Numbered from the stretch's first letter, positions 3,706 to 40,718 are shown. The stretch is DNA of 64,000 bases from a virus (IMGVR_UViG_3300045988_153285:32001-96000); one strand, 5' to 3'. Notes: generated by a model from the sequence alone, not told the origin. Translations and numbers: made by a program.

Positions 3706-4932
3706 TTATAACTCAATCATATACTTATTCACATCATATTTTCCATAAGGCAATCCCTTTTGGGTATATTTTTTTATGTCATCTACAAATCCCATCTTTA
3801 TTCTGTCATCAATGTATCTAAGTAGAGCTGCTATGTAGTCCATACTTTCTAATCTACAATATTTTATTATGTCATCATAATCTATTCCAAGTTCTCTTAA
3901 TCTACTAACTATTTCTTCATCAGTAGTATATTTATCTAGCCCTCTAGCTTTTTCTCTGCTAGTGGTATTGAATACTAAATTCACACCTTCATTTATAAAG
4001 CTATATTCTTGAATAAATTTAATTGATTTTAATTCTTCTAGAGCTATTTTTAATTGCTTATTAGAATAATATATCTCATCTTTTGTGATACAATCTAGAC
4101 CTATATAGTCACATAAGGTTTGAAATTTAATATATTTTTCATATCCCCTAGACCATTGAGTGAGTATTAGCTGCAGTTTCTTTGCAACACTACTTTTTAA
4201 ACTTTTATAAATATCGTAATCATATATCTTTAAAAAATTATTGCATAGATTTTTATAGAAAAAGTCATCAATTTCAACACTTTGATGTTCTTCTATCTTA
4301 GCAGGATCTAATAATTTCTTATTTGCCATTTTACGTTTTGAAACACTATAAGACTTATAATTCTTTAATATTCTTGAACTTTCACACCCATCAAAATCTA
4401 TTACATATTCTCCTACCTCCTGATCTCTTATTGCTAGAGTAGAGTATATGGTGCATTCATTTAAGCATAATATAGATTTTTCTAACCTTTCTTTTGTGGC
4501 CTTCCCAAATCCGCTCAACCCCATTTCTTTCGCTAATCCTCTATATGTGAAGTTTATTTTCTGTGGCATATTAGTTATGGAATGCTTAGAAGTCAATACC
4601 TCACCATTTTCATCTACGGTTTTAGAAGTCAATACCTCAATCTTATCATCCATATTTTTAGAATGAATTTTAAATAATGCCATCAATACATCTAGTTCAT
4701 ATATTGTTGGACATAGATATTTAGCTCCACCTACAACCTTCAATGCAACTTCTTGACCATCCCTAATCCAAAATCTTTTTATTTCAGGAACTCTCTTTCT
4801 TTTTAAAGATATAAATGGCAACGTCATTAAATTTGATTCATTAAAGCTTTGACTTTTCTTCATATTAATAACTTTTCCACATGATAAATCCTCATTTTTA
4901 CTTGTTTCTACAATGTTTTCCACATTATTCAC
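3706..4932 (-). CDS. plasmid replication initiator (RepA / Replication initiator protein A-like)
   Basis: LMTLPFISLKRKR and G..CPTIYELDVLMAL motifs typical of the initiator family; iteron array lies directly upstream. Confidence 0.7.
   Translation of the reverse strand: MNNVENIVETSKNEDLSCGKVINMKKSQSFNESNLMTLPFISLKRKRVPEIKRFWIRDGQEVALKVVGGAKYLCPTIYELDVLMALFKIHSKNMDDKIEVLTSKTVDENGEVLTSKHSITNMPQKINFTYRGLAKEMGLSGFGKATKERLEKSILCLNECTIYSTLAIRDQEVGEYVIDFDGCESSRILKNYKSYSVSKRKMANKKLLDPAKIEEHQSVEIDDFFYKNLCNNFLKIYDYDIYKSLKSSVAKKLQLILTQWSRGYEKYIKFQTLCDYIGLDCITKDEIYYSNKQLKIALEELKSIKFIQEYSFINEGVNLVFNTTSREKARGLDKYTTDEEIVSRLRELGIDYDDIIKYCRLESMDYIAALLRYIDDRIKMGFVDDIKKYTQKGLPYGKYDVNKYMIEL
4586..4639. repeat. 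two inverted iteron-like copies inside the rep coding sequence
   Basis: TTAGAAGTCAATACCTCA at 4586 and 4622; reverse complement shares 15 nt (GGTATTGACTTCTAA) with the iteron at 4984; encodes the duplicated VLTSK in Rep. Confidence 0.7.
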
Positions 4933-14486: not shown

Positions 14487-14535
14487 AAGAATAAGTATAA
14501 AATAATACTTTTATATGTGAATGGAGAGTTTGAAA

Positions 14536-14742
14536 ATGATTATAGAACAAAAAATAATATTAAATTGTAGTAATACAAAACAAGGAAAAGATAAAGGCTG
14601 TATGATAAGGTTATTAAGAGTTAATCCAAATGGAGAATATGGACGTTCAGAATATCAAGGAGTAATTACAGAAGAACAAAGGCGCTCAATAGAAAAAATT
14701 TTAGGTATATCAGAATATAACGATTATAGAAGAATTATATAA
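14536..14742 (+). CDS. hypothetical protein
   Basis: ORF-track 14521 trimmed to ATG 14536 after GGAGAG. Confidence 0.55.
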   Translation: MIIEQKIILNCSNTKQGKDKGCMIRLLRVNPNGEYGRSEYQGVITEEQRRSIEKILGISEYNDYRRII

Positions 14743-14760
14743 ATGAATTGTTTTATTTAT

Positions 14761-14780
14761 ATATAAAAATTAATAAAAAT
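14761..14780 (+). repeat. dispersed motif copy (SD-proximal class)
   Basis: ATATAAAAATTAATAAAAAT followed by TGAGGT and ATG 14794. Confidence 0.65.
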
Positions 14781-14793
14781 ATGAGGTAGAATT

Positions 14794-14991
14794 ATGGAAT
14801 TAAATAAATCAATGTTAGAATTAAATTTAACTGATTTTAATAAAGCAATAATTAAAAATTTAGGCAAAGAAGTTTGGAGAAAAATCAACAGTGATTTAGA
14901 TACAAGTTGCGTATTACTTGCAGGTGGATCAGAGAAGTATAAAAATTTAGTTTATAACTATTTAGGTAATAAAGGTTATATAAATAATTAA
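14794..14991 (+). CDS. hypothetical protein
   Basis: GAGGT SD; 65 aa; GCCGA/TCGGC hairpin at 15001-15015 downstream. Confidence 0.55.
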   Translation: MELNKSMLELNLTDFNKAIIKNLGKEVWRKINSDLDTSCVLLAGGSEKYKNLVYNYLGNKGYINN

Positions 14992-15075
14992 AATAAGTTT
15001 GCCGAGTTTATCGGCTTCTTATATGAGTATATAAAAATTATATATTGATATGAGAATATATTAAGAGGTGAAAAT

Positions 15076-15312
15076 ATGAAACGAATAGGTAAATTAACAA
15101 AATATAGAGTAATATGCAATACGCTTGATGTATTAGTTAGAAATAATATAGATAATAGATTTAATATTATACAAGAAAAATTCAATAGGAGAGAATCTGA
15201 AACTATTCAGGAGCTTTTGAGTGTTATAGATGAGTTGTTATGTTCTACAGAAGATTATGATGTTAAACAGTGTTTAATAGCATATAGAGACAGATTGAAG
15301 GTAATAATATAA
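15076..15312 (+). CDS. hypothetical protein
   Basis: AGAGGTG SD; 78 aa. Confidence 0.6.
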   Translation: MKRIGKLTKYRVICNTLDVLVRNNIDNRFNIIQEKFNRRESETIQELLSVIDELLCSTEDYDVKQCLIAYRDRLKVII

Positions 15313-15328
15313 TATAGGAAGTGGTTGT

Positions 15329-15574
15329 ATGAAAAGATATATAGTAAATAACACAAAAGTATATGAAGCAGATCCAGCAAAAGAAATGAGATTTATAAAA
15401 AGATTGGCTAAACTCGACTATATAATTGTATACGATAAACAAATAATAGAGCAAGAGAATAAAATATTGCTTATACCTAACCGATTAACATTGTTAGAAA
15501 CTTATGATATTATTAAGAGAGTGTATCCTATTAGTTATGTTGTAAAAAATTTCAAAGAAATAGGTTTAATATAA
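15329..15574 (+). CDS. hypothetical protein
   Basis: AGGAAGTGG SD-like; 81 aa. Confidence 0.55.
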   Translation: MKRYIVNNTKVYEADPAKEMRFIKRLAKLDYIIVYDKQIIEQENKILLIPNRLTLLETYDIIKRVYPISYVVKNFKEIGLI

Positions 15575-15584
15575 AAAATAATTT

Positions 15585-15635
15585 AATAAAAATTAACGAA
15601 ATGTGTTGACAACGATAAGAAGAATATGGTAATAT
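15585..15635 (+). promoter_or_regulatory. dispersed motif + promoter with extended -10
   Basis: AATAAAAATTAACGAAAT, TTGACA 15606-15611, TGGTAATAT at 15627-15635. Confidence 0.65.
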
Positions 15636-15677
15636 ATAGGTATAGTAAGTAATAAAAAATTTAAGGAGATTTGAGAA

Positions 15678-16268
15678 ATGAATAATGAATTTATTATAAA
15701 AAGAGGAATGATATTTTATGCAGATCTAGGAATTAGCGAAGATAGTGTTCAAGCTGGGCTTAGGCCGGTAATTATCGTGGGAAATGGCTTACAATGCAAA
15801 TTCGGGCCGATTATAACAGTAATTCCAATAACTTCAAAGATAGCGAAGAAACGTTTAATGACACAAACATTATTAATTAATGAAATTGGTTTAAATAGAG
15901 AAAGTATGCCAATGGCAGAACAAATTACAACAATATCAAAGGACAAATTAGTTAGTTACATAGGTAGATTAAGAAAAAGTACAATGGAGGAAATTGATAA
16001 AACAATAGATGCAGCGTTAGCATTAACAGATATAAGAGAAAAAGAAATAGAAAAACAAGTTGAAGAAGTTAAGAGATGGGAAAACAATATAAATGATCTA
16101 AAAGATATAGTTCCAAAGACTGCTTTAGAACAAATAAAACTAAGATATAAAATAGAGTTAAATAAATTAGATAATATATGTAATTCAAATAGGAAGAGTA
16201 TAAATAATTATTATATAGCAAATATAAATACATTTTCAAATGAGATGAGTATGGTAGCAACAAGATAA
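15678..16268 (+). CDS. MazF/PemK-family toxin domain with about 80-aa C-terminal coiled-coil extension
   Basis: RGMIFYADLG..GLRPVIIVGN..ITVIPITSK..AEQITTISKDKL..GRL matches the PemK/MazF fold pattern; AAGGAG SD. Confidence 0.7.
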   Translation: MNNEFIIKRGMIFYADLGISEDSVQAGLRPVIIVGNGLQCKFGPIITVIPITSKIAKKRLMTQTLLINEIGLNRESMPMAEQITTISKDKLVSYIGRLRKSTMEEIDKTIDAALALTDIREKEIEKQVEEVKRWENNINDLKDIVPKTALEQIKLRYKIELNKLDNICNSNRKSINNYYIANINTFSNEMSMVATR

Positions 16269-16294
16269 AAAGAATTTATGGGGGCGGATGTAAA

Positions 16295-16903
16295 ATGGAT
16301 ATACAAAAAATTGTAAAAGAAGAAATATTCCCTATGTTAGGCGAAGGGAAAATAGATGAAGCAGAAAAGAAACTAAGAAGATTAATGTTAACTTTGACGG
16401 ATAAGAATTGCACAGAAGACCATAGAATAGTTTTATGTTCTCTTAGCAGAATAAAGTATATTACTGGTGATATTGATAATGCAAAATATTATATAAATAG
16501 ATTCATAGATATTCTGCAGCATGATAATGAATATGCAGAAACATATAAGGATGGTTATTGTAATTATATAAATTTATATGCTGAGATATTTAAAGATAGT
16601 ATTGATATAGATGAAAAAAATAAGATAAACAATATAAATTTAGATAATGCTATAAATAATAACGATACAGCAAGGATATATACAGCTAAAGCAAATATAG
16701 CATTTCTAAGAGATGATATAGAAGAAATAGAAAATGTCCTTATGGACATACATAATTATGAAAAATCTAAACTAATAGATGAAAATAAGCTAATTAGCGC
16801 AGAGGTTTTAAATGATCTTTGCAATTTAAAAATAGAAATATACAAAGAGTTAAAGGAAAAATATCCTAATTATGTACAAGAAGATTATAACTATGCTTAC
16901 TAG
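16295..16903 (+). CDS. helical-repeat (TPR-like) protein; candidate peptide receptor or antitoxin
   Basis: Repeated helix-pair signatures (GKIDEAEKKLRRLM, GDIDNAKYYINRFIDI, ARIYTAKANIAFLRDDIEE); 27 nt after the MazF-like gene. Confidence 0.6.
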   Translation: MDIQKIVKEEIFPMLGEGKIDEAEKKLRRLMLTLTDKNCTEDHRIVLCSLSRIKYITGDIDNAKYYINRFIDILQHDNEYAETYKDGYCNYINLYAEIFKDSIDIDEKNKINNINLDNAINNNDTARIYTAKANIAFLRDDIEEIENVLMDIHNYEKSKLIDENKLISAEVLNDLCNLKIEIYKELKEKYPNYVQEDYNYAY

Positions 16904-16959
16904 ACAATTTCCTCTTTAGAGGGGTTGAATATATATATATAATTTTTGGAGGTACATTT

Positions 16960-17124
16960 ATGAAAAAAACAATTGGAAAAGGAATTATTCTAGGAGCAGC
17001 TATAACAATAGCAATAGGTGTAATAGGAGGTGCAACAATGATGAAACCTAGAATATTAAATCCATGGGGAGGTACAAATGATAAAGACGGGATTGAATTA
17101 GCAATATTGAATCCTTGGGGATAA
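16960..17124 (+). CDS. 54-aa signal-peptide-bearing propeptide with duplicated ILNPWG motif (below ORF-track cutoff)
   Basis: TGGAGGT SD. Sequence MKKTIGKGIILGAAITIAIGVIGGATMMKPRILNPWGGTNDKDGIELAILNPWG*. Basic n-region + hydrophobic h-region; second ILNPWG at the extreme C-terminus. Confidence 0.5.
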   Translation: MKKTIGKGIILGAAITIAIGVIGGATMMKPRILNPWGGTNDKDGIELAILNPWG

Positions 17125-17199
17125 TTGGAAGAGTGGGCATCTTAATTGGTGTCCACTTAAAATTGTATAGATTAATATAATAAAGGAGAATGAGAAAAT

Positions 17200-17976
17200 A
17201 TGAACAATAATGTAGAAAAATTTTTAAGTGAAGTATTTGGAGAAGTTAGAGTAGAAAAAGATAACTTAAAATTATGGTTTTGCGCTAGTGATATAGCAAA
17301 AGTATTAAATTATAGCTCAACACAAAAGATTACCGATAAAGTTGATGATGAAGATAAAGATTACCGAACTTGGGTAACCCTTGGAGGAAAACAAAATATG
17401 ATTTGCATAAACGAATCAGGCTTATATCAAGCGGTATTAAGTATTACTAAAAAGGATAAGGAGAGATACGAAAAATCAAGAGAGTTTAAAAGATGGATCA
17501 CAGGAATAGTTATACCTGCTATAAGAAAAGATGGAGCTTATATTCAGGATGAGGAAAAAGTTTCTCATGGAGAATTAAGCGAGGAAGAATTTATTTTAAA
17601 AGCTATGACAATAATGCAGAATAAAATTGATAGGCTATCAAGAGAAAATGCAGAGATGAAACCAAAAGTAGAATATGTTGATAAAATACTATCAAGTACG
17701 GATGCAGTTACAACAACTCAAATAGCAAAAGATTATGGATTATCTGCAAGACAATTGAACGATATATTAAAAGAAGAAAAAATTCAATACAAACAAAATT
17801 CTCAATGGCTACTATATTCTAAATATGCAGATAAAGGATATATGAAATCTGATACATTTAGATATGATAAACATAATGGTGAAGTTGGAACCAAGATAAA
17901 CTCTAAATGGACTCAACAAGGTAGATTATTTATACACGAAGTATTGAAAGGTAGAAACATAAAACCGGTAGCATAA
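17200..17976 (+). CDS. phage antirepressor (Bro-N domain + KilA-C/ANT domain)
   Basis: FGEVRVEKDN..LWFCASDIAKVLNY (Bro-N) and TTTQIAKDYGLSARQLNDILKEEKIQYKQN (KilAC). Confidence 0.8.
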   Translation: MNNNVEKFLSEVFGEVRVEKDNLKLWFCASDIAKVLNYSSTQKITDKVDDEDKDYRTWVTLGGKQNMICINESGLYQAVLSITKKDKERYEKSREFKRWITGIVIPAIRKDGAYIQDEEKVSHGELSEEEFILKAMTIMQNKIDRLSRENAEMKPKVEYVDKILSSTDAVTTTQIAKDYGLSARQLNDILKEEKIQYKQNSQWLLYSKYADKGYMKSDTFRYDKHNGEVGTKINSKWTQQGRLFIHEVLKGRNIKPVA

Positions 17977-18021
17977 TACATATAAATAGTTTTAGGTGGC
18001 TAATCTATAAAACCACCTTCA

Positions 18022-18071
18022 AATATAAATTAACAAAACTCATTGACTGAATTTGAAAAGTATGGTAATAT
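18022..18071 (+). promoter_or_regulatory. dispersed motif + promoter
   Basis: AATATAAATTAACAAAAC, TTGACT 18043-18048, 17-nt spacer, TGGTAATAT. Confidence 0.7.
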
Positions 18072-18109
18072 ATAAATATAGAAATTAAGAAAAATGAGAG
18101 GTCAAAAAA

Positions 18110-19054
18110 ATGAGTATTATAATTGATAGATTTGAAAGAGAATTAATAAGATCCGAAGCTTCTGTTGATACAATAGCAGCATATAAAAGTGATTTGAAAA
18201 AATTTCATGAATATATAAGAGAAAATGTTTTTTACAGCGATAGCAGTTTCGATGAATCTCTTTGTGCTATTACCTATGAGGTTTTAGAAGATTTTATTTA
18301 TTGGCTTGAAGATAGAGAATATTCAAGAGCAACAATTAACAGAATGGTCGCATCACTAAAAGCATTTTATAAATACTATTCTAAGCATAGCGGATTTAAT
18401 CCTGCTATTGGACTTAAAGGATATAAGAATGTGAATAGTAGACGTAGAACTGTATTATCAAAAGAACAAGTAATTAAAATAATAAACCAAACACAGATAA
18501 AAAGATATGGTGAACCTTATATGTTATTTAATGCACAAAGAAATAGATTTTTAATAGCTTTACTTGCAACAACTGGACTGAGAATAGGAGAAGCACTTAA
18601 TATTAAGTTCGGAAATATAGAACACTACGATGGATATAAAATGGTTAATATCGACATACATAAAGGAAAAACTAAACTTAACAAAAGAGTTCCTATTTGT
18701 GAAAAAATATTGCCATACTATGATTTATATATAGAAGAATATAAGAAAAAATTTAAGATAAGTGATGAAAAATATTTAATTGTTGCTGGAAGATCAGGAG
18801 GACAATTGTGTTCAAAATCTAGTAATGTGATGATAAAAAAATATTGTAAAGAATTAGAGATAGAAGATGTGACAAACCATTGTTTTAGACATTACGCTAA
18901 TACATCACTGGAAGAACTTGAAACACCAGATTCAATAAGAAAAAAAATATTAGGGTGGAGTTGCAATGGTGATATGGGGAATAGTATATATTCGCATGAT
19001 ACAGAAAAAAAAGATAAGATAATGGCGAAGTATTGCAATAAAATATTAGAGTAG
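18110..19054 (+). CDS. tyrosine recombinase (XerC/D / phage integrase family)
   Basis: TGLRIGEAL (Arg), HCFRHYANT (H-x-x-R), LGWS..GNSIYSH (Tyr); N-terminal SAM-like domain ..IAAYKSDLKKF. Confidence 0.85.
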   Translation: MSIIIDRFERELIRSEASVDTIAAYKSDLKKFHEYIRENVFYSDSSFDESLCAITYEVLEDFIYWLEDREYSRATINRMVASLKAFYKYYSKHSGFNPAIGLKGYKNVNSRRRTVLSKEQVIKIINQTQIKRYGEPYMLFNAQRNRFLIALLATTGLRIGEALNIKFGNIEHYDGYKMVNIDIHKGKTKLNKRVPICEKILPYYDLYIEEYKKKFKISDEKYLIVAGRSGGQLCSKSSNVMIKKYCKELEIEDVTNHCFRHYANTSLEELETPDSIRKKILGWSCNGDMGNSIYSHDTEKKDKIMAKYCNKILE

Positions 19055-19067
19055 GGTTTTCCTACTC
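19049..19067. terminator. bidirectional hairpin between convergent genes
   Basis: GAGTAGG / CCTACTC stem overlapping both stop codons. Confidence 0.5.
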
Positions 19068-19367
19068 TTCTAATAAAAACATGTGAGAACAACCTTTATT
19101 AATATGATTTTTACGGCAAGTCTTTCGTAACTCCTTCGTGGGCATAATAACACAATTATTACAATTGTATTGAATTATTTCACTAGGACAGGTTTTTAAG
19201 TTTTTACAAACTTCAATAAATCTGTCACGTTCATTAGATCCACGATATCTGAAATTATTTGTTTCTAATCTACTTATGTAAGTTTGAGATACTTTTGATT
19301 TAATAGCTAGTTCATCTTGTGTAAGTTTATTTTTCGTCCTATGTTCTTTTAAATTTAATTTTATCAT
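19062..19367 (-). CDS. XRE-family HTH repressor with Cys-rich C-terminus
   Basis: ORF-track 19062..19478 trimmed to MIKLNLKEHRTKNKLTQDELAIKSKVSQTYISRLE (HTH_3 pattern) with an AAGGAA SD; C-terminal CPSE..CNNC..C..C. Confidence 0.7.
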   Translation of the reverse strand: MIKLNLKEHRTKNKLTQDELAIKSKVSQTYISRLETNNFRYRGSNERDRFIEVCKNLKTCPSEIIQYNCNNCVIMPTKELRKTCRKNHINKGCSHMFLLEE

Positions 19368-19575
19368 TCTTATTCCTTTCTTAATATTTTTATTATATTT
19401 AATAATATTAAAAAATGAAAGAAAAACAAAGCAATACAAATACAAAAAATGAAGAAATATGGAAGAAATAAACGACAAATATTACTATACGGAATAAAAA
19501 TGTGAGAAAAATGTTATATAATGTTATTGTAGACAAATGGTTGCCTCATTTGATATAATAGCAATAAGAAAAGAG

Positions 19576-19589
19576 AGAACATGTGTTCT
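19576..19589. promoter_or_regulatory. candidate operator (inverted repeat AGAACA-tg-TGTTCT)
   Basis: Lies between the TGATATAAT extended -10 (19551-19559) and the SD of the 19609 gene, in the divergent repressor region. Confidence 0.45.
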
Positions 19590-19608
19590 TTAGAAAGGGG
19601 AAATTAGG

Positions 19609-19821
19609 ATGGGAGAATTAAGTTTATTAGACTTAAAGGTATTATTAATAGAAAAGGAGGTATTCGATATTGAGAGAAATGGAGAAAAAATGTTTGATGT
19701 TGGCTCAGATGAATTATGGGAAGAAATACATAAAGAAAAAATTATAAAAGCCGAGTTTTTCGGAGATGAAAGTATAGTATACATAAAGTTACAAAGCAAT
19801 GAATTAATATTATTGTTGTAG
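19609..19821 (+). CDS. hypothetical protein (first rightward gene of the switch region)
   Basis: AAGGGG SD; 70 aa. Confidence 0.55.
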   Translation: MGELSLLDLKVLLIEKEVFDIERNGEKMFDVGSDELWEEIHKEKIIKAEFFGDESIVYIKLQSNELILLL

Positions 19822-19851
19822 AATAAGCACAGTTAAGTGCTAACATGTAAG

Positions 19852-19866
19852 TAAAATTAACGAAAT
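19852..19866 (+). repeat. dispersed motif copy (variant)
   Basis: TAAAATTAACGAAAT. Confidence 0.5.
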
Positions 19867-19978
19867 ATAAACATAAATCACTCCTTTTAGGGTATAATAC
19901 ATATATAAAATAATAAAAAAGATTGATTAAACTGTTGTTTTTATATATAATTATATTTATAGAAGGAGTGTTTTTATC

Positions 19979-21319
19979 ATGGAAAGTTTAGAAAAATTAA
20001 AAGAGAGAATATTAGAATCTGTAGAAGATAATATTAACAATAAAAAATTATTAAAAGAGTTGAGAGAGGAATTTATAAAGAAAAAATTACCTTCAGCCAT
20101 ACCAAACCAATTGTTTAGTGAGTCTATAGATGAAGATCACTTAGATAAAAATGTATTGATTGCTATAACAAAAGTATTTAAGAATGAATTAGACTCTGAA
20201 AAATTTAAACTATCTAATTACTTTAGTGAAGGTGAAATATTTAGCTACAACAATGAGATAGAAGTTAAAGAAAAAATAGATTATGTATTGTTTAAAGGAA
20301 TCAGACAGATAGATGGCAAGAACTTTTTAGGTGTTATTGATGGTAAGCAAGCAGTTGAAATGAGAAAAAATTCACTATATTCCTATAATAAGTTATTTCA
20401 ACGTGCGCCTAAGGTGGTCAGAACATCTTCTGGAAGAACTATAAAGAAAATTGATGCGAATAAAGAAAATATATTAGATATGGAAAAAGAGTTTTCAGAA
20501 GAAAAAATGACACCAACATCTATTCATTTTGCTATATTAGTTAATAATACGGCAGGAATAAGCGAAAACTTTAAATTTAAAAAAATGTATGAAAATATAG
20601 GTGATATGTGGATTAAGCCGAACTTTGATTTTGAATCTGAAACTTATTTACCATTAATGTGTGTTGATGGGTGGCATAGATTAACAGCTATGTGCAATGC
20701 AGTTGAAAAAGCTGAAGCAGAAGGAAAAACAATAAAGGCTGAATTAGGATGTTTTGTTCATATTTTTGATAATGAAGCAGCTATTAGACACTTTATAGTT
20801 AGTACATTTAAACGCTGTACGACTAATCTAGATTATTTAAATGCAATTACTCCTAATGATGACAATATATTTATAGATGAATTTATAAAAGAATGCAAAT
20901 GGTTAAATGGACATACAGCATTAACTAAGCAAGAAATGAAATTAGAAAATAATTATACTGAAAAAAGAATATTAATAGATTCATTTAAGAAAACTAATAT
21001 AGAGATGAATGATGATCTAAAGAACACAATAAGTCGAGAAAAAGTGGCAAAAGTAATCGATGAAACATTAGATTATGTATTAAAAGAATTATATGATAAC
21101 AATTTAGAAAAAATGATTAATACTATTTATTTGAATAGAAATATATTTAAAATGTATATAAAGTTTGCAGCAGAAGTTAGAGATAAAAAATATGGAATGG
21201 ATATTTATAACCTGATTCAGTATATAGAAAATAATTGCGAAAAAATTACAAACACATTTAATGAAAAGTATATAGCAGATAGTAGTATAGATTTAATTCT
21301 GAGCGAGGTGATTAAATAA
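19979..21319 (+). CDS. ParB/Srx-fold protein with DGQHR-like motif (DndB-like)
   Basis: LMCVDGWHRLTAM resembles the DGQHR signature of DndB/DGQHR-domain proteins; AGGAG SD. Confidence 0.5.
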   Translation: MESLEKLKERILESVEDNINNKKLLKELREEFIKKKLPSAIPNQLFSESIDEDHLDKNVLIAITKVFKNELDSEKFKLSNYFSEGEIFSYNNEIEVKEKIDYVLFKGIRQIDGKNFLGVIDGKQAVEMRKNSLYSYNKLFQRAPKVVRTSSGRTIKKIDANKENILDMEKEFSEEKMTPTSIHFAILVNNTAGISENFKFKKMYENIGDMWIKPNFDFESETYLPLMCVDGWHRLTAMCNAVEKAEAEGKTIKAELGCFVHIFDNEAAIRHFIVSTFKRCTTNLDYLNAITPNDDNIFIDEFIKECKWLNGHTALTKQEMKLENNYTEKRILIDSFKKTNIEMNDDLKNTISREKVAKVIDETLDYVLKELYDNNLEKMINTIYLNRNIFKMYIKFAAEVRDKKYGMDIYNLIQYIENNCEKITNTFNEKYIADSSIDLILSEVIK

Positions 21320-22461
21320 TGAAGACTTTTGAGGAATTAATAAAGAGCGAAAGAAATAAATTGGAAAATAAAAATTTAAAATTTGATGAGTACGAGAACA
21401 ATAAGATAAACTGGTTAAACGATGATGAGAATAACGGATATATAGCAGAAAAAACAAAGATAACTTATTATAGATTGTTAGATGTGCATGTGCATAGTTC
21501 GGAAATAGCTAATAACAAAGATTTAAGAAAATTTACAAGTGTAGAAATAGAAAACCTAGTTAAAGGAGCAATAACTAATAGTAGTACAACTAAACGTGCT
21601 ATATTTGCAGCTATAAATAATTATATGATATATAACGTTGAAAGAGGATTTATAAGCTACAATCCATGTGACTCAATACCAACAACTGATTTATTTGAAG
21701 TAAATAATAAAGCATTAAAAGAACAATACATGCCGTTAGATGAGTTCTATGCATATGTAGATGAATTATCTGCTGATAATGTTGAAAAAATGGTATATGT
21801 ACTAATTAGATACGGTGTACCAGTAAGTGATGTACCTAATGTCAAATGGGAAGATTTGAATGAAGAAGAAATGGTATTAACAACTATTGTTAAGAAAAAA
21901 GCAGTGTCATTACCTATAGATGAAGATTTTATAAGAAAAGCAAGGTTGTGTAGGGCATGTTCAGAGTATGAAGATGGTGGCTATATGATAAAAACAGTAG
22001 ATGGAAGACTTTCTTCTGTAAGTAGAATATATGGAATAATTGATAGGGTTAGTAAAGCTAGCGAAGTTGCAAGACCAGATATGGGAATGTTATTTAAAAA
22101 TAGAAGATATGATCTCGCATTAGAAATTTATGAAGATGAAGGACAAATAGAATCAAACGATCTAAAAGAAATATTAGATATATTAGGTTTATCAAGTGGA
22201 AATTCTAGTTTAACTACATTTAGAAAAGAATTAGAAAATATCTTTGGTTTAGAAGTTAAAACAAAAAACAAAAGAGCTATTGATGTTATAGATATTAATA
22301 CAGGTGAAATAATAAAGACTTATGAATCTATTAGAAATGTGGTAAAAGATAGCAAAGAAACTTTCGGATTCTATATAGATAAGAGTGTTGTTGGGAAAAC
22401 ATGCAAAGGTGAAAGAGAAGGCATGAGAGGATTAACATTTAGATATTCAGAGCAGGGGTAA
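21319..22461 (+). CDS. tyrosine-recombinase-like DNA-binding protein, probably catalytically inactive, with C-terminal NUMOD-like tail
   Basis: Start overlaps upstream stop. SAM-like N-domain (..TTKRAIFAAINNYMIYNVERGFISYNP). VLIRYGVPVSD keeps the Arg. LFKNRRY replaces H-x-x-R and LGLSSGNSSLTTF has Phe where Tyr is expected. Confidence 0.45.
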   Translation: MKTFEELIKSERNKLENKNLKFDEYENNKINWLNDDENNGYIAEKTKITYYRLLDVHVHSSEIANNKDLRKFTSVEIENLVKGAITNSSTTKRAIFAAINNYMIYNVERGFISYNPCDSIPTTDLFEVNNKALKEQYMPLDEFYAYVDELSADNVEKMVYVLIRYGVPVSDVPNVKWEDLNEEEMVLTTIVKKKAVSLPIDEDFIRKARLCRACSEYEDGGYMIKTVDGRLSSVSRIYGIIDRVSKASEVARPDMGMLFKNRRYDLALEIYEDEGQIESNDLKEILDILGLSSGNSSLTTFRKELENIFGLEVKTKNKRAIDVIDINTGEIIKTYESIRNVVKDSKETFGFYIDKSVVGKTCKGEREGMRGLTFRYSEQG

Positions 22462-24247: not shown

Positions 24248-24298
24248 AATATAAATTAACAAAAATGATTGACAACAATTAGAAAGTTATGGTAATAT
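24248..24298 (+). promoter_or_regulatory. dispersed motif + promoter
   Basis: AATATAAATTAACAAAAAT, TTGACA 24269-24274, TGGTAATAT extended -10. Confidence 0.7.
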
Positions 24299-24332
24299 AA
24301 ATTTGCAAGATAGATCAAAAGGAGTTGAGAAT

Positions 24333-24920
24333 ATGAAAAATAAATTATTTGTTTTGTTAAGTGAGTCATCTGGTGGCAAAGATACATTATTAAATATGAT
24401 AGTAAAAAATGAATTTTTAAAACCTGTTATTTCTACAACAACAAGAAGAATGAGAAGTAATGAAGAACAAGAGCGTGAATATCATTTTATAACTAAAGAA
24501 GAATTTATGTTGATGGAAGCAAAAGATGAATTCCTAGAGACTACGAGTTATCTAATTCCTTCAGAGGGAATAGTCAAATACGGATTAGCAAAGAAAGATG
24601 TTGTTTTGAGTAAAAGCAGCTACGGAGTAATATTGAATCCAATAGGTCTCCAACAAGTAGAAGAACAATTAGGAAAAGAGAATGTTGTTAGTATTTATAT
24701 ACATAGAAATGATAAAGATAGATTTATAAGTTATCTAAATAGAGAAGAAAAAAGGTTTGATTTAATATTGGATGATGCGTACGAAAGATATAAGAGAGAT
24801 TTAAAGGACTTCGCAGGAATAGAAACAAAAGTGGATTATGTAATTAATAATGATGGTTATTCAGAAGATATGTTATTACAATTCTTAGAGATATTAAATG
24901 CAGAAAGTTATAAAAATTAA
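24333..24920 (+). CDS. guanylate-kinase-like nucleoside monophosphate kinase
   Basis: P-loop SESSGGKDT and STTTRRMRSNEEQEREYHFITKEEF (guanylate kinase signature pattern). Confidence 0.65.
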   Translation: MKNKLFVLLSESSGGKDTLLNMIVKNEFLKPVISTTTRRMRSNEEQEREYHFITKEEFMLMEAKDEFLETTSYLIPSEGIVKYGLAKKDVVLSKSSYGVILNPIGLQQVEEQLGKENVVSIYIHRNDKDRFISYLNREEKRFDLILDDAYERYKRDLKDFAGIETKVDYVINNDGYSEDMLLQFLEILNAESYKN

Positions 24921-36974: not shown

Positions 36975-37000
36975 TAGAGAGTAAAAGGAGAATGATTAAA

Positions 37001-38029
37001 ATGAAAAGAATGTTAAATATGAATTATGTTATTGAAGTTTTAGATGGAAGATTAAACGGAAGTGCAGTGGAAGTCGAAAGCAATAAGGATGGATTTAATA
37101 ATACAACTTTTACAAAGAAAATCGGTGGTAGAGCTAAGGTATCGGCAGTTTGTCAAAAGGCGAACATGAAGAATTATATGTGTGAAGTATTAAAAGAAAC
37201 TATTGGAGAAAAGACTAAAGAAGGTAAGCAAGTTTTAAGCACGCCTAACCCATATGCTAATTTATTTGATGATGTATTTGGATTTATGTTGGCGACAAAG
37301 ATTGAGTTGACTGAGGGAGAATATAAGGAATTACCAGAAGATGTGCAAAAAACATTTGAAAAGAAAGGTAAAAAATATACTAATAATGCAACTAAAAAGA
37401 GAACTTCTAACTTACAAATGAGTTCATTAATCAATGTGAGTAATAGAAGGGTTGAAACGGAATTTAATGTTTGTGCTACAAGTGGAGACAATATGCCTTA
37501 TAAAATTGAAACATATTCAGGAATTATGTCAGGAATAGCAAACTTAAATATAGGTAAGATAGGTGAATTTACTATATCAGATATTGCGTCAGAATATAGA
37601 GATTATACTGTTAAAGAAGCAGAAGTTCTAGGGGTTGAAAACCTATCAAGAGAAGATAAATTATCTAGAATAGAAAAGACATTAAATGCTTTAGAGTATA
37701 TGTCAATCAAAGGAAATCAGACAAACCACTTAACAGATACAAAACCTAAATTTATTATAATGGCTGATTATGGTTGGGGTAATAATGTATTCCAAGGAGT
37801 GATAAATAAAGATGGGTTAGATATAGAAATGCTAAAAGAATCAATAGATCAAAATGAAGAATATAGATTAAGTAATATTTATATAGGAGTTAATAAATTC
37901 TTTGATAAAAATAACAATTTAGATTTAGATACAATAAGAGAAGAATTAAGGGAATATGATTTCATAAAAGTTGATAATGTTCATAATACATTTAAGAATT
38001 ACATAAAAGAGTTAAGAGAGAATATTTAA
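37001..38029 (+). CDS. cas7: Cas7-like backbone subunit
   Basis: Size and position; GGRAKVSAVCQKANMKNYM resembles the Cas7/DevR R..(V/I)S....K..R segment; trimmed to ATG 37001 for SD spacing. Confidence 0.6.
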   Translation: MKRMLNMNYVIEVLDGRLNGSAVEVESNKDGFNNTTFTKKIGGRAKVSAVCQKANMKNYMCEVLKETIGEKTKEGKQVLSTPNPYANLFDDVFGFMLATKIELTEGEYKELPEDVQKTFEKKGKKYTNNATKKRTSNLQMSSLINVSNRRVETEFNVCATSGDNMPYKIETYSGIMSGIANLNIGKIGEFTISDIASEYRDYTVKEAEVLGVENLSREDKLSRIEKTLNALEYMSIKGNQTNHLTDTKPKFIIMADYGWGNNVFQGVINKDGLDIEMLKESIDQNEEYRLSNIYIGVNKFFDKNNNLDLDTIREELREYDFIKVDNVHNTFKNYIKELRENI

Positions 38030-38127: not shown

Positions 38128-38751
38128 GTATTAATTATAATATGGTTATTTATAAACAACAACCTTTTAAAGTCATTATGAGTATTCCAATATGTATTAA
38201 TTATAATATGGTTATTTATAAATGAATGTGGACTCCTATATAAGATTATCTTCGATACGTATTAATTATAATATGGTTATTTATAAATATATATAAATTT
38301 TATGTGTTTCTTCAGTTTCTTCTGTATTAATTATAATATGGTTATTTATAAACTATAAATAGGTGTTTTTAACTCTAAATAGTGTCAAAGTATTAATTAT
38401 AATATGGTTATTTATAAATAGATCTACTGCCATTTTAATATTCATACTATTCACTTGTATTAATTATAATATGGTTATTTATAAACAGTGGTAATTCTAT
38501 TGTCAATATATCACCATAACTAGTTTTAATATTAATAATATATATTTATAAAGGTAGTAACAGTTTTAGGAACATTGACAGCTGGTGTGTTTAAATAGTA
38601 ATATAATTATTTATAAATGGTGTAGTGGTATACGACATCGAAAATAAAACTGCGTTTAAATATTAATATAGTTATTTATAAACTAAAAGGTCTTCCTAGA
38701 TACATTACATCTAAAGAAGTGTATTAATTATAATATAAATTATTTTATAAA
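38128..38751 (+). CRISPR. CRISPR array, 10 repeats / 9 spacers (36-38 nt)
   Basis: Six identical 29-nt repeats GTATTAATTATAATATGGTTATTTATAAA at 38128, 38194, 38259, 38324, 38390, 38457. Variants follow at 38523, 38589, 38654, 38721. Confidence 0.95.
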
Positions 38752-38771: not shown

Positions 38772-40718
38772 ATGTTAAAAGAGTATATAGCAAAAACAGA
38801 TAAAACATCATTAGAAGATCATAATAAAGAATTGACAAATATACTGAAACAAATAATTGATATATATGATATAGAAAATATAAAAGAATCATTGAATAGA
38901 TGTATTGAATATCATGACATAGGAAAATGTTCTGATTCAATGCAGAATAGATTAAAGGGAAAAGACGTTAATTTTATAAGACATGAATGGGTCGGTGCAA
39001 GTGTAGAAGATCTGACAGATGGTGAAAGATTGGCTATATTAACGCATCATAAAGATATTAGTAAGTCATTAGAATTAATTGATAATGATAAGTATATATC
39101 TGAATTAGAAGAAATTAAAAATAAATTGAATATAAAATTAAATAATATTGATGATTTTGTTAAGAAAGTAAACAAACCGAGGTGTAGTATTACAAAAGAT
39201 TTAGATAATATATTATTAAAGGGTTATTTAAATTATTGTGACCATTTATGCAGTGCAGGTAATATAACTATAGATAAAGGATTTAATTCTTTAGATAGGT
39301 TTAAGTTTAATAATTATAATTCTATTCAGAATAAGGCTATGAATACACGTGAAGACGTTTTAATTCAAGCTATGACAGGATTAGGTAAAACAGCGGCATC
39401 TTTATTGTGGAGTAATAATGTTCAGAATGAGGACAAGTCTAAAAGAATATATTACATATTGCCTTTTACAGCTAGTATAAATTCGTTATATAAAGATTTC
39501 TTAAATAGAAATATATCTACCACAATGCTACATAACAAAGCTGAATATTTTATGGACAAGCTGCATGATGAATATAATTATAAATTAATGAAGTATTCCA
39601 CTAAGCAACTAAACATTTGCACAATATTTCAATTAGCTAAGGCAATTTTTAGTTGTAAGAACTTTGAAATGATAATAGCTCAAATGAAGAACAGTATAAT
39701 AATGGTAGATGAAATACATTGCTTTGATTTAAAAACGTTGAGTTATATTTTAGAATTATTAAGATTTTTAAAATATAAATTAGGATGTAGAATCTGCATA
39801 ATGAGTGCCAGTATTCCAACTGTATTACAGAAATTAATAAAGGATAGACTAGATATAAACAAGGTTATATATGCTGATAAGCGTGATCTAAAAATAAGAC
39901 ATAGAATACATAGAGTAAATAAAACAATTTTGGATGACATAGAAAAAATAGAAAATGATCTAAGAGAAGGAAAGCAAGTTATAGTGTGTGTTAATAATGT
40001 GACTACTTCTCAGATTATTTATAAAATATTTAAAGATAAATATAAGTGCAAGTTGATACATGGTAGATTTAATACTAGAGATAGAGAAATTGCTGAACAA
40101 GGGCTAAAGGTAAATCAATTACTTGTAGGAACTCAAGCGATAGAAGTATCTTTAGATATTAGTTATGATACAATGTATACTGAAATAGCGCCATATGATG
40201 CTTTACTGCAGCGTTTCGGAAGAGTTAATAGACGTGGAGAAAAGGGAATTAGAGATATTTACATATATAATAACTATAATAAATGTATTTATGATGATGA
40301 ACTAATTAATAATACAGATTTAGTTATAGATGAAATAATACATAATGATAATAGAATAATACTTGAAGAAAAAGTTGAGCATTATTTGGATAAAGTTTAT
40401 ACATATATAGATATAATTAGCTACAATAAATATTCAAATTCTTTAGAAAAAGTAATAAATAATCTTAGAGTTGGAAACTATAATAAAAATAGCATAAAAG
40501 AGATGATTCAAGGTGATACAGTATCGGTAATTCCTGAGTGTCTATTGGAAGAATATCAAAAGCTGATAAATGATAGAGAATATTTAAAAGCTCAATCACT
40601 AAAGTTAAATATTAATTCTAATAGAATGAAATACAATAGTGACATGTTTTATATATGCGATGATTTGGTTGTATCGAAATATAAATATACATATGATTTA
40701 GGTATGGAGTTTGAATGA
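38772..40718 (+). CDS. cas3: Cas3 nuclease-helicase (HD domain + SF2 helicase)
   Basis: HD motifs (EDHNKE, YHDIGK, THHKD); helicase AMTGLGKT (I), VDEIH (II), QRFGRVNRRG (VI). Confidence 0.85.
   Translation: MLKEYIAKTDKTSLEDHNKELTNILKQIIDIYDIENIKESLNRCIEYHDIGKCSDSMQNRLKGKDVNFIRHEWVGASVEDLTDGERLAILTHHKDISKSLELIDNDKYISELEEIKNKLNIKLNNIDDFVKKVNKPRCSITKDLDNILLKGYLNYCDHLCSAGNITIDKGFNSLDRFKFNNYNSIQNKAMNTREDVLIQAMTGLGKTAASLLWSNNVQNEDKSKRIYYILPFTASINSLYKDFLNRNISTTMLHNKAEYFMDKLHDEYNYKLMKYSTKQLNICTIFQLAKAIFSCKNFEMIIAQMKNSIIMVDEIHCFDLKTLSYILELLRFLKYKLGCRICIMSASIPTVLQKLIKDRLDINKVIYADKRDLKIRHRIHRVNKTILDDIEKIENDLREGKQVIVCVNNVTTSQIIYKIFKDKYKCKLIHGRFNTRDREIAEQGLKVNQLLVGTQAIEVSLDISYDTMYTEIAPYDALLQRFGRVNRRGEKGIRDIYIYNNYNKCIYDDELINNTDLVIDEIIHNDNRIILEEKVEHYLDKVYTYIDIISYNKYSNSLEKVINNLRVGNYNKNSIKEMIQGDTVSVIPECLLEEYQKLINDREYLKAQSLKLNINSNRMKYNSDMFYICDDLVVSKYKYTYDLGMEFE

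Follow-up and report, generated by a model that had tools for sequence, protein, structure and literature searches.

A 64,000-nt stretch of viral DNA (IMGVR_UViG_3300045988_153285:32001-96000; this whole stretch is hereafter the window) raises the question of what a gene for a small protein ending in a duplicated hexapeptide does directly after a gene for an all-helical protein, in a unit that begins with a toxin gene of the MazF family. On the plus strand the gene order is MazF/PemK (15678–16268), a 202-residue tetratricopeptide repeat (TPR)-like protein (16295–16903), a 54-residue open reading frame (ORF; 16960–17124) and a Bro-N/ANT gene. A first-pass annotation had read the two middle genes as a peptide-based communication cassette of the RRNPP or arbitrium kind placed next to the lysogeny switch, and our reading of the ORFs reproduced both genes and the 56-nt gap between them. 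We hold it to be an even call that the three-gene unit encodes a peptide-gated TPR partner of a phage-plasmid MazF that works like Rap-Phr. The best-supported reading of the comparisons set out below is that the cassette would operate in the manner of Rap-Phr yet not be a member of that family, and would thus represent RRNPP-type peptide signalling in which both the receptor family and the output are new.

The small ORF, which encodes the propeptide candidate MKKTIGKGIILGAAITIAIGVIGGATMMKPRILNPWGGTNDKDGIELAILNPWG, is preceded by a ribosome-binding site (GGAGG at 16948–16952, plus strand, 7 nt 5′ of the ATG), in keeping with the good Shine–Dalgarno sequence noted at first pass. Its translation divides, as had been described, into a basic n-region (MKKTIGK, +3), a 21-residue hydrophobic h-region and a polar tail, KPR-ILNPWG-GTNDKDGIELA-ILNPWG, with a possible signal-peptidase site between GGA and T by manual reading. 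ILNPWG indeed occurs twice, at residues 32–37 (17053–17070, Arg before) and at residues 49–54 (17104–17121, Ala before), the second copy being the extreme C-terminus, and each copy is a candidate mature signal. Such a repeat is rare here: among the 152 ORFs of 30–100 residues with an M start in the window, an exact non-overlapping 6-residue repeat occurs in two, the other one lying antisense inside a long gene. An ORF of 51–56 residues is called directly 3′ of the TPR gene in most readable relatives, the exceptions being L011 (whose contig ends just past the ORF start), L012 (only a 20-residue ORF) and L021/L022 (none). It is kept throughout the close family and in lineages with 43%, 32% and 26% receptor identity, on the same strand and 26–61 nt after the receptor candidate gene (window family, L006/L016–L018, L008 and L010), and a profile search recovered 18 clusters of it. 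With pairwise ratios of nonsynonymous to synonymous substitution (dN/dS) of 0.22–0.29, the small ORF is a real gene under purifying selection, and the expectation that related elements would show the same two-gene arrangement with variable C-terminal motifs was borne out across divergent relatives.

The small proteins share one architecture by manual check, with an n-region of +3 or +4, an uncharged h-region of 16–22 residues, candidate (−3,−1) cleavage sites and a polar tail. The composition of the N-terminus is consistent with a Sec signal or a signal anchor, and in either case the positive-inside rule predicts that the repeats are placed outside the cell. The tails themselves, each running to the stop codon, read R-ILNPWG...A-ILNPWG in the window type (TPR identity 100%), R-ILN[P/S/T]WS...A-ILNPWN in type B (74–78% identical to the window in the TPR protein) and R-VLNPW[S/A]...A-VLNPWN in type C (60–61%). 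At greater distance they read R-ILDRWG-SRSNVA-ILDRWG-TI in L006/L016–L018 (43%), R-GVQAWG-YNPTNNIA-GVQAWG in L010 (32%) and R-GNQGWG-FIPREIAL-SNQGWG in L008 (26%). Counting these, the two-copy architecture is found with other motif sequences in four lineages besides that of the window. Copy 1 is preceded by Arg and copy 2 by Ala. Trp is the sole residue invariant in all peptides, with Gly usually next; the copies are identical at 5–6 of 6 positions within one peptide and at 2–4 of 6 between lineages, and the internal copy is the more variable among relatives (ILNPWS, ILNSWS, ILNTWS, VLNPWA). One metagenomic propeptide variant (P0121, 46 residues, on an 84.6-kb contig) carries a frameshift beyond the first ILNPW copy and no longer encodes the second. 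Two other peptide classes were considered for the small ORF and rejected: a double-glycine bacteriocin leader, given its hydrophobic N-terminus and a GG without conservation, and a ribosomally synthesised and post-translationally modified peptide precursor, given that no modifying enzymes are nearby.

The 202-residue protein matched no family at curated cut-offs or at E < 0.02 in Pfam, PHROG, NCBIfam or PADLOC. Its close family consists of 79 clusters with 60–100% identity, nearly all of 202–206 residues apart from a few shorter truncated entries, and includes Paraclostridium bifermentans and Clostridium cuniculi contigs of 118–140 kb. An exhaustive search of 1.84 billion representatives returned only 26 at E ≤ 1e-3 (23–44% identity), of 179–220 residues save for a few fragments and one 668-residue protein, and a profile search of a 5.8-billion-protein set with the distant alignment found few additional members. 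The TPR repeats of the 668-residue repeat protein align by phmmer to residues 17–64 of the 202-residue protein, and its N-terminal half bears, by eye, a Walker-A-like GGIGKT motif. In an AlphaFold2 model built from a 23-sequence alignment (predicted local distance difference test score, pLDDT, 93; predicted template modelling score 0.83), ten helices form four TPR-like hairpins plus a capping helix. All top Foldseek matches in the PDB are TPR proteins, the best being an uncharacterised Deinococcus protein (3gw4, E 8.6e-3, TMq 0.56), and they include RapI, the pLS20 Rap with Phr* and the phi3T Rap with its pheromone (TMq 0.5–0.56; TMt 0.29–0.35, covering only part of the Rap chain) as well as kinesin light-chain TPRs in complex with cargo peptides that contain Trp; the Foldseek viral library returned solely TPR, Sel1 or SNAP-like proteins. 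Going by this model, the fold class is TPR-like and suited to peptide binding. Neither Pfam nor NCBIfam gave a helix-turn-helix (HTH) on the protein, whose model is all helical hairpins, so that the earlier description of a receptor candidate without HTH and about half the usual length (202 versus ~380 residues) holds. Of the similarity to Rap or AimR that had also been suggested, the TPR-like fold stood, Rap being among the structural matches, and a Rap- or AimR-specific or sequence relationship did not: searches of Pfam, NCBIfam, PHROGs and PDB profiles showed no homology to Rap, NprR, PlcR, PrgX, Rgg, ComR, AimR or QsrR. On the model, the structural matches and its gene linkage, the protein encoded at 16295–16903, predicted to be cytoplasmic, is a candidate peptide receptor and a candidate regulator or antitoxin of MazF.

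The linkage is to the gene upstream. Its 196-residue product matches PemK_toxin (PF02452) in Pfam with E 1.5e-17 and phrog_1936 ('MazF-like growth inhibitor') with E 1.2e-23, in agreement with the MazF-like toxin of the first-pass annotation, and comprises a MazF domain from residue 1 to about 118 followed by a helical C-terminal extension of ~80 residues. Long MazF relatives (196–220 residues) all have such an extension. A profile of six family members matches Bacillus subtilis YdcE/EndoA (E 8.8e-44) over positions 7–119 only, the extension finding no match in the same search, and the equivalents of Arg29-Pro30 and Thr/Ser52-Ser53 are conserved throughout the long family. In the 95 phage records that have a MazF-like gene, no more than 60% of the long MazF query is covered, and their products therefore lack the extension. 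In the window family, L006/L016–L018, L008, L010 and L021/L022 the MazF-family gene always ends 20–27 nt before the TPR start, a spacing kept in six lineages. No MazE/PemI/AbrB-type gene adjoins the unit, the upstream ORFs differing by lineage without family match and the gene upstream of MazF in L021 being a recombinase; this leaves the TPR protein as the sole candidate for a protein partner, or antitoxin, of the RNase. An 81-residue upstream ORF was considered as a MazE-like antitoxin and rejected (no family match, differs between lineages, and a promoter-like site intervenes), and an apparent split of MazF in the relative L001 proved to be a run of N in the scaffold.

The other flank behaves differently. 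The Bro-N/KilAC antirepressor gene (17200–17976, plus strand; Bro-N E 8e-19, ANT/KilAC E 4e-35), recognised as such from the start, has a counterpart of only 24–32% identity in some relatives; in others a different Bro-N or pRha gene takes its place, or the gene is split or missing. The antirepressor is variable cargo and not a conserved part of the unit, and the MazF-family gene is the invariant neighbour. Between the two roles first suggested for the pair, governing induction or governing the adjacent toxin, this invariant linkage better supports the toxin, and the lysogeny part found no support. A promoter-like site lies 5′ of the three genes (TTGACA-N15-TATGGTAATATA with an extended −10; 15606–15636, plus strand; putative, by consensus match), from which genes 15678–17124 are probably transcribed as one unit. 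The motif TTGAC[AT]-N14-15-TATGGTAATATA is common to three sites, at 15606–15636, at ~18043–18074 (repeat D1) and at 24269–24299, which precede the MazF-family gene, the tyrosine recombinase gene and an ORF at 24303–24920 respectively, an indication that these transcription units use one class of promoter. An Rfam scan of 14500–20000 matched no family, and PADLOC assigned neither the TPR nor the peptide gene to a defence system.

Within the close family, three allelic types could be compared. MazF is 93–99% identical among them, the TPR protein 60–78% and the propeptide 80–87%; between types, the synonymous distance dS is 0.28–0.61 for the TPR gene versus 0.05–0.26 for MazF, and dN/dS is 0.34–0.45 versus 0.03–0.18. 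The TPR gene is a mosaic, type B being C-like in codons 1–120 and window-like in codons 121–185 (window versus L001/L003/L004/L019). Across nine loci, the allele of TPR block 41–120 goes with the last residue of the peptide (G versus S/N) and that of block 121–185 with the I or V at which the peptide begins, in both copies. Such receptor–peptide co-variation resembles the co-evolution of pherotypes, and is suggestive.

How these parts could work together may be set out as follows. Gene 1 would supply a MazF-family endoribonuclease with its catalytic residues kept and a family-specific helical extension, and gene 2 a cytoplasmic protein of ~200 residues, made of four TPR-like hairpins and a cap, which is probably the antitoxin of that RNase. 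Because the TPR protein has no DNA-binding domain, it would act on MazF by direct contact; free of peptide, it would neutralise the co-encoded RNase through protein–protein contact, as Rap receptors do with their targets. Gene 3 would encode a propeptide exported via its N-terminal signal and cut outside the cell, the two tandem copies releasing a peptide of 5–6 residues (xxxxW[G/S/N], here ILNPWG) that would accumulate with the density of element-carrying cells. The peptide would be re-imported, probably by an oligopeptide permease, and would bind the concave face of the TPR protein and so free the RNase, high signal then meaning RNase activity and favouring quiescent carriage or lysogeny.

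The comparison with Rap-Phr is the closest that we found. Rap is the only HTH-less member of the RRNPPA group (PMC9765709), and here too an HTH-less TPR receptor candidate, proposed to act by protein contact, is followed directly 3′ on the same strand by a propeptide gene whose product has an N-terminus of Sec-type composition. In Phr105 of phage phi105, two identical copies of ERPVGT separated by the spacer LKLA are both released and active, with conservation concentrated on the repeats (PMC11343458); likewise, the candidate here has a C-terminal 5–6-mer and an identical or near-identical internal copy, with a short spacer ending in Ala. RRNPP 'eavesdropper' receptors that have no peptide have been described (PMC9765709), and a counterpart may exist in L021/L022 (P0091 lineage), where the MazF and TPR genes form a pair without peptide ORF (L021 3743–5263; L022 2479–2809). 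In L021 a 506-residue TnpB/IS605-like gene occupies the peptide-gene position; the pair is an 'eavesdropper' version, or else the unit was disrupted. The differences are substantial. The receptor has about 200 residues versus about 380 for Rap, its ten helices leave it without the N-terminal three-helix-bundle effector domain or the 7+ TPRs of Rap, and it has no detectable sequence homology to Rap. The candidate target is a co-encoded MazF-family RNase versus Spo0F or ComA, and the hosts are clostridial, not Bacillus.

A number of observations weigh against the Rap-Phr-like reading. The published RRNPP signature calls for a propeptide of 10–100 residues, Sec (SignalP) or short hydrophobic peptide (SHP)-type export, a receptor of 250–500 residues with a match to a TPR hidden Markov model (HMM), and adjacency of the two genes (PMC10075063). 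The propeptide fits (54 residues here, 51–56 in relatives) and is adjacent to the receptor gene wherever a two-copy propeptide gene was found. The receptor, in contrast, has 202 residues (179–220 in the family), and its best Pfam TPR-type matches (E 0.02–0.08) are far under the cut-offs and fall short of E < 1e-5 with coverage > 65%; because the receptor falls outside these two limits, current RRNPP detectors would miss the cassette. The structural likeness is that of a generic TPR, with no Foldseek match at E < 1e-3 and nothing specific to Rap or AimR, and a profile search of PDB sequences returned no RRNPP receptor, only matches of E > 0.03 to unrelated helical proteins; membership of a known receptor family is therefore not established. 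With a length of up to 22 residues, the h-region could serve as a membrane anchor in place of a cleaved signal. Only three haplotypes underlie the co-variation, and the peptides show conservative changes (I/V, G/S/N) against a receptor difference of 25–40%. The region is generally mosaic, the recombinase and XRE genes too being only about 61% identical between types, and recombination could account for part of the pattern; with three haplotypes in such a region we treat the co-variation as suggestive only. The contact between the TPR protein and MazF is drawn from gene linkage only, and a single-sequence structure model of the long MazF (pLDDT 45) was unusable. L012 (1344–2022) carries a 26%-identical TPR homolog without MazF, beside a divergent XRE gene; there, a 20-residue single-motif ORF (MFNFLACLFVSPLGGGEMWG) overlaps the stop codon of the TPR homolog, and L012 may represent a version of the sensor that has an SHP-like, single-copy peptide and another output. 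Finally, the direction of the switch, with peptide releasing the RNase, is a guess by analogy.

The alternative that survives best, which we nevertheless consider unlikely, is that the TPR protein is an unconventional antitoxin or sensor of a two-gene MazF module serving plasmid addiction or abortive infection, the small ORF being an unrelated membrane or secreted protein with a structural repeat and no part in signalling. Toxin–antitoxin modules are common on plasmid prophages. The MazF and TPR pair without small ORF in L021/L022 fits a plain toxin module, the h-region is of sufficient length for a transmembrane anchor, and the small ORF matches the small-protein family DUF3042 weakly, below threshold. 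As in MazEF and PemIK, the catalytic domain has the conserved Arg-Pro and Thr-Ser pairs and the gene forms a tight operon with that of a second protein. Here, however, the toxin gene comes first and its product has the ~80-residue extension; no MazE/PemI/AbrB-type antitoxin is present, the partner being the TPR protein, and a third gene encodes the candidate exported peptide. Classic MazEF-type autoregulation is moreover unlikely, since the TPR partner has no DNA-binding domain. A structural repeat would leave unexplained why the two copies within one protein stay near-identical although the motif differs from lineage to lineage, and why a signal-like N-terminus is followed by the motif at, or close to, the extreme C-terminus, as in propeptides of the Phr, AimP and PapR types. 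Nor would an unrelated protein be expected to stay directly after the TPR gene in lineages with 26–44% receptor identity, as the small ORF does.

Less likely still, at little better than one chance in ten in our estimation, is that the peptide is a signal targeting the MazF-family RNase itself, the TPR protein not being its receptor. The peptide would then resemble the extracellular death factor (EDF) or mimic a MazE tail, with xxxxWG filling the hydrophobic pocket for MazE Trp73 (IDWGE) and either competing with the TPR antitoxin or modulating the RNase. For Escherichia coli, EDF (NNWNN) has been reported to compete with MazE 71–75 (IDWGE) for binding to MazF, the Trp of EDF being essential and Trp73 of MazE critical (PMC3668371). 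All motifs here have the invariant Trp, usually followed by Gly, and ILDRWG of L006 resembles the IDWGE segment of MazE. EDF and our candidate would have in common a short extracellular Trp peptide linked to a MazF RNase (PMC3668371). In our case, unlike EDF, the propeptide gene is dedicated, duplicated in its motif, lineage-specific and toxin-linked, with the gene for the TPR protein in between. EDF is reported to derive from the housekeeping protein Zwf and is not known to have a dedicated propeptide gene, and the EDF literature is contested. In the three close types, the peptide and TPR alleles change in concert beside a MazF of 93–99% identity, so that the peptide tracks the TPR protein and not MazF. 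TPR grooves, moreover, are classic binders of short peptides, including Trp-containing motifs in kinesin light chain.

An arbitrium-type transcriptional circuit acting on the antirepressor, recombinase or XRE genes, with MazF an incidental neighbour, is the framing that the first-pass annotation had favoured and, despite the position of the unit just upstream of the recombinase and XRE genes in all c-st-like relatives and the promoter-like motif that it has in common with the recombinase gene, is in our judgement improbable, because the receptor candidate is without HTH or other DNA-binding domain, the more so as it shows no AimR or RRNPP relationship in sequence, the antirepressor is variable or absent in relatives, the L021/L022 pair adjoins a different (MrpR-like) recombinase, and MazF is the only invariant neighbour.

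Arbitrium is nonetheless informative for the Rap-Phr-like reading that we favour, through its own link to MazF. In phi3T, arbitrium controls AimX, a MazE-like antitoxin of the host MazF, whose activity is required for lysogeny: at low signal AimX blocks MazF and lysis follows, and at high signal MazF is active and lysogeny follows (bioRxiv 10.1101/2023.04.27.537455). The direction proposed above for the switch follows this logic, condensed into a single protein step. Likenesses to the present unit are a phage-borne C-terminal hexapeptide candidate in the regulatory region of a temperate element and, as proposed here, a MazF RNase as downstream effector. The systems differ in that AimR is an HTH-TPR transcription factor of ~380 residues, whereas the protein here has no DNA-binding domain; in that the phi3T MazF is host-encoded and AimX transcriptionally controlled, whereas the present RNase is encoded by the element and would be neutralised post-translationally, by the receptor itself; and in the lack of sequence similarity. 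It is thus possible, although we put it below an even chance, that the unit is a self-contained, post-translational analogue of arbitrium, in which a minimal TPR receptor of ~200 residues is also the antitoxin of the MazF that the element encodes, a secreted hexapeptide specific to the pherotype switching this receptor off (or on). Full-text searches of the literature found no description of a unit combining TPR, MazF and propeptide genes.

Beyond the unit, the tyrosine recombinase gene (18110–19054, plus strand) lies 3′ of the antirepressor gene and is followed by an XRE/HTH_3 gene on the minus strand (about 19062–19367, 101-residue product going by relatives). The latter had been called a divergent repressor, which is not so: it is convergent with the recombinase gene, and divergent only from the plus-strand gene at 19609. 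Further 3′ of the XRE gene, a 446-residue protein (phrog_5732) and then an MrpR-like recombinase-related protein are encoded at 19979–22461; the pair is syntenic in all relatives (also L006/L016–L018) and may be a partition or resolution module. The element as a whole is a large replicon, with a family-B polymerase, RecJ, methyltransferases, PcfJ and DnaB-like, RecD2-like and Cas3-like helicases, and its proteins belong to phage protein families. Among sequenced phages the Clostridium botulinum plasmid-prophage c-st is nearest, with only 46% identity for one protein (window 36992–38029). A 96.5-kb IMG/VR contig has 99% identity at this locus, close relatives are known only as metagenome or draft contigs of 96–148 kb, single-protein scans of genome, viral and metagenome contigs found at most 1–2 loci each, and near-identity DNA and tblastn searches with the region and the TPR protein gave no match in phage and plasmid collections. 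The element is a member of a poorly sampled group of c-st-like phage-plasmids. Two other repeats were noted elsewhere in the window. At 38141–38483, six copies of TATGGTTATTTATA spaced ~65–66 nt apart form a tandem array just 5′ of a Cas3-like/DEAD-box helicase ORF (38772–40718), and this could be an iteron-like origin or regulatory array. At 4448–4680 (plus strand), antisense to the ORF at 3706–4932 on the minus strand, two small ORFs have internal repeats of 5–6 residues (LEVNTS, RSQYL), which probably reflect a DNA repeat within that 408-residue gene (phrog_23878, function uncharacterised).

If it is such a post-translational analogue of arbitrium, the unit would be the first toxin–antitoxin module under the direct control of a dedicated quorum-sensing peptide, and its TPR protein would define a new receptor family, with members about half as large as any RRNPP receptor and out of reach of the present RRNPP detectors. 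A working receptor family of ~200 residues would expose a gap in surveys that filter for 250–500 residues and an HMM-detectable TPR (PMC10075063). With three genes and synthetic hexapeptides, the parts are small and the idea is cheap to check, and the alleles ILNPWG, ILNPW[S/N], VLNPW[S/N], ILDRWG, GVQAWG and NQGWG offer a natural specificity panel. Direct coupling of signal to MazF would turn the transcriptional arbitrium–AimX–MazF link of phi3T into a one-step protein switch, and would provide toxin–antitoxin biology with a defined input from outside the cell, a matter of long dispute in the EDF literature. Were the cassette to work, peptide signalling in Gram-positive mobile elements would extend to the clostridial c-st-like phage-plasmids.

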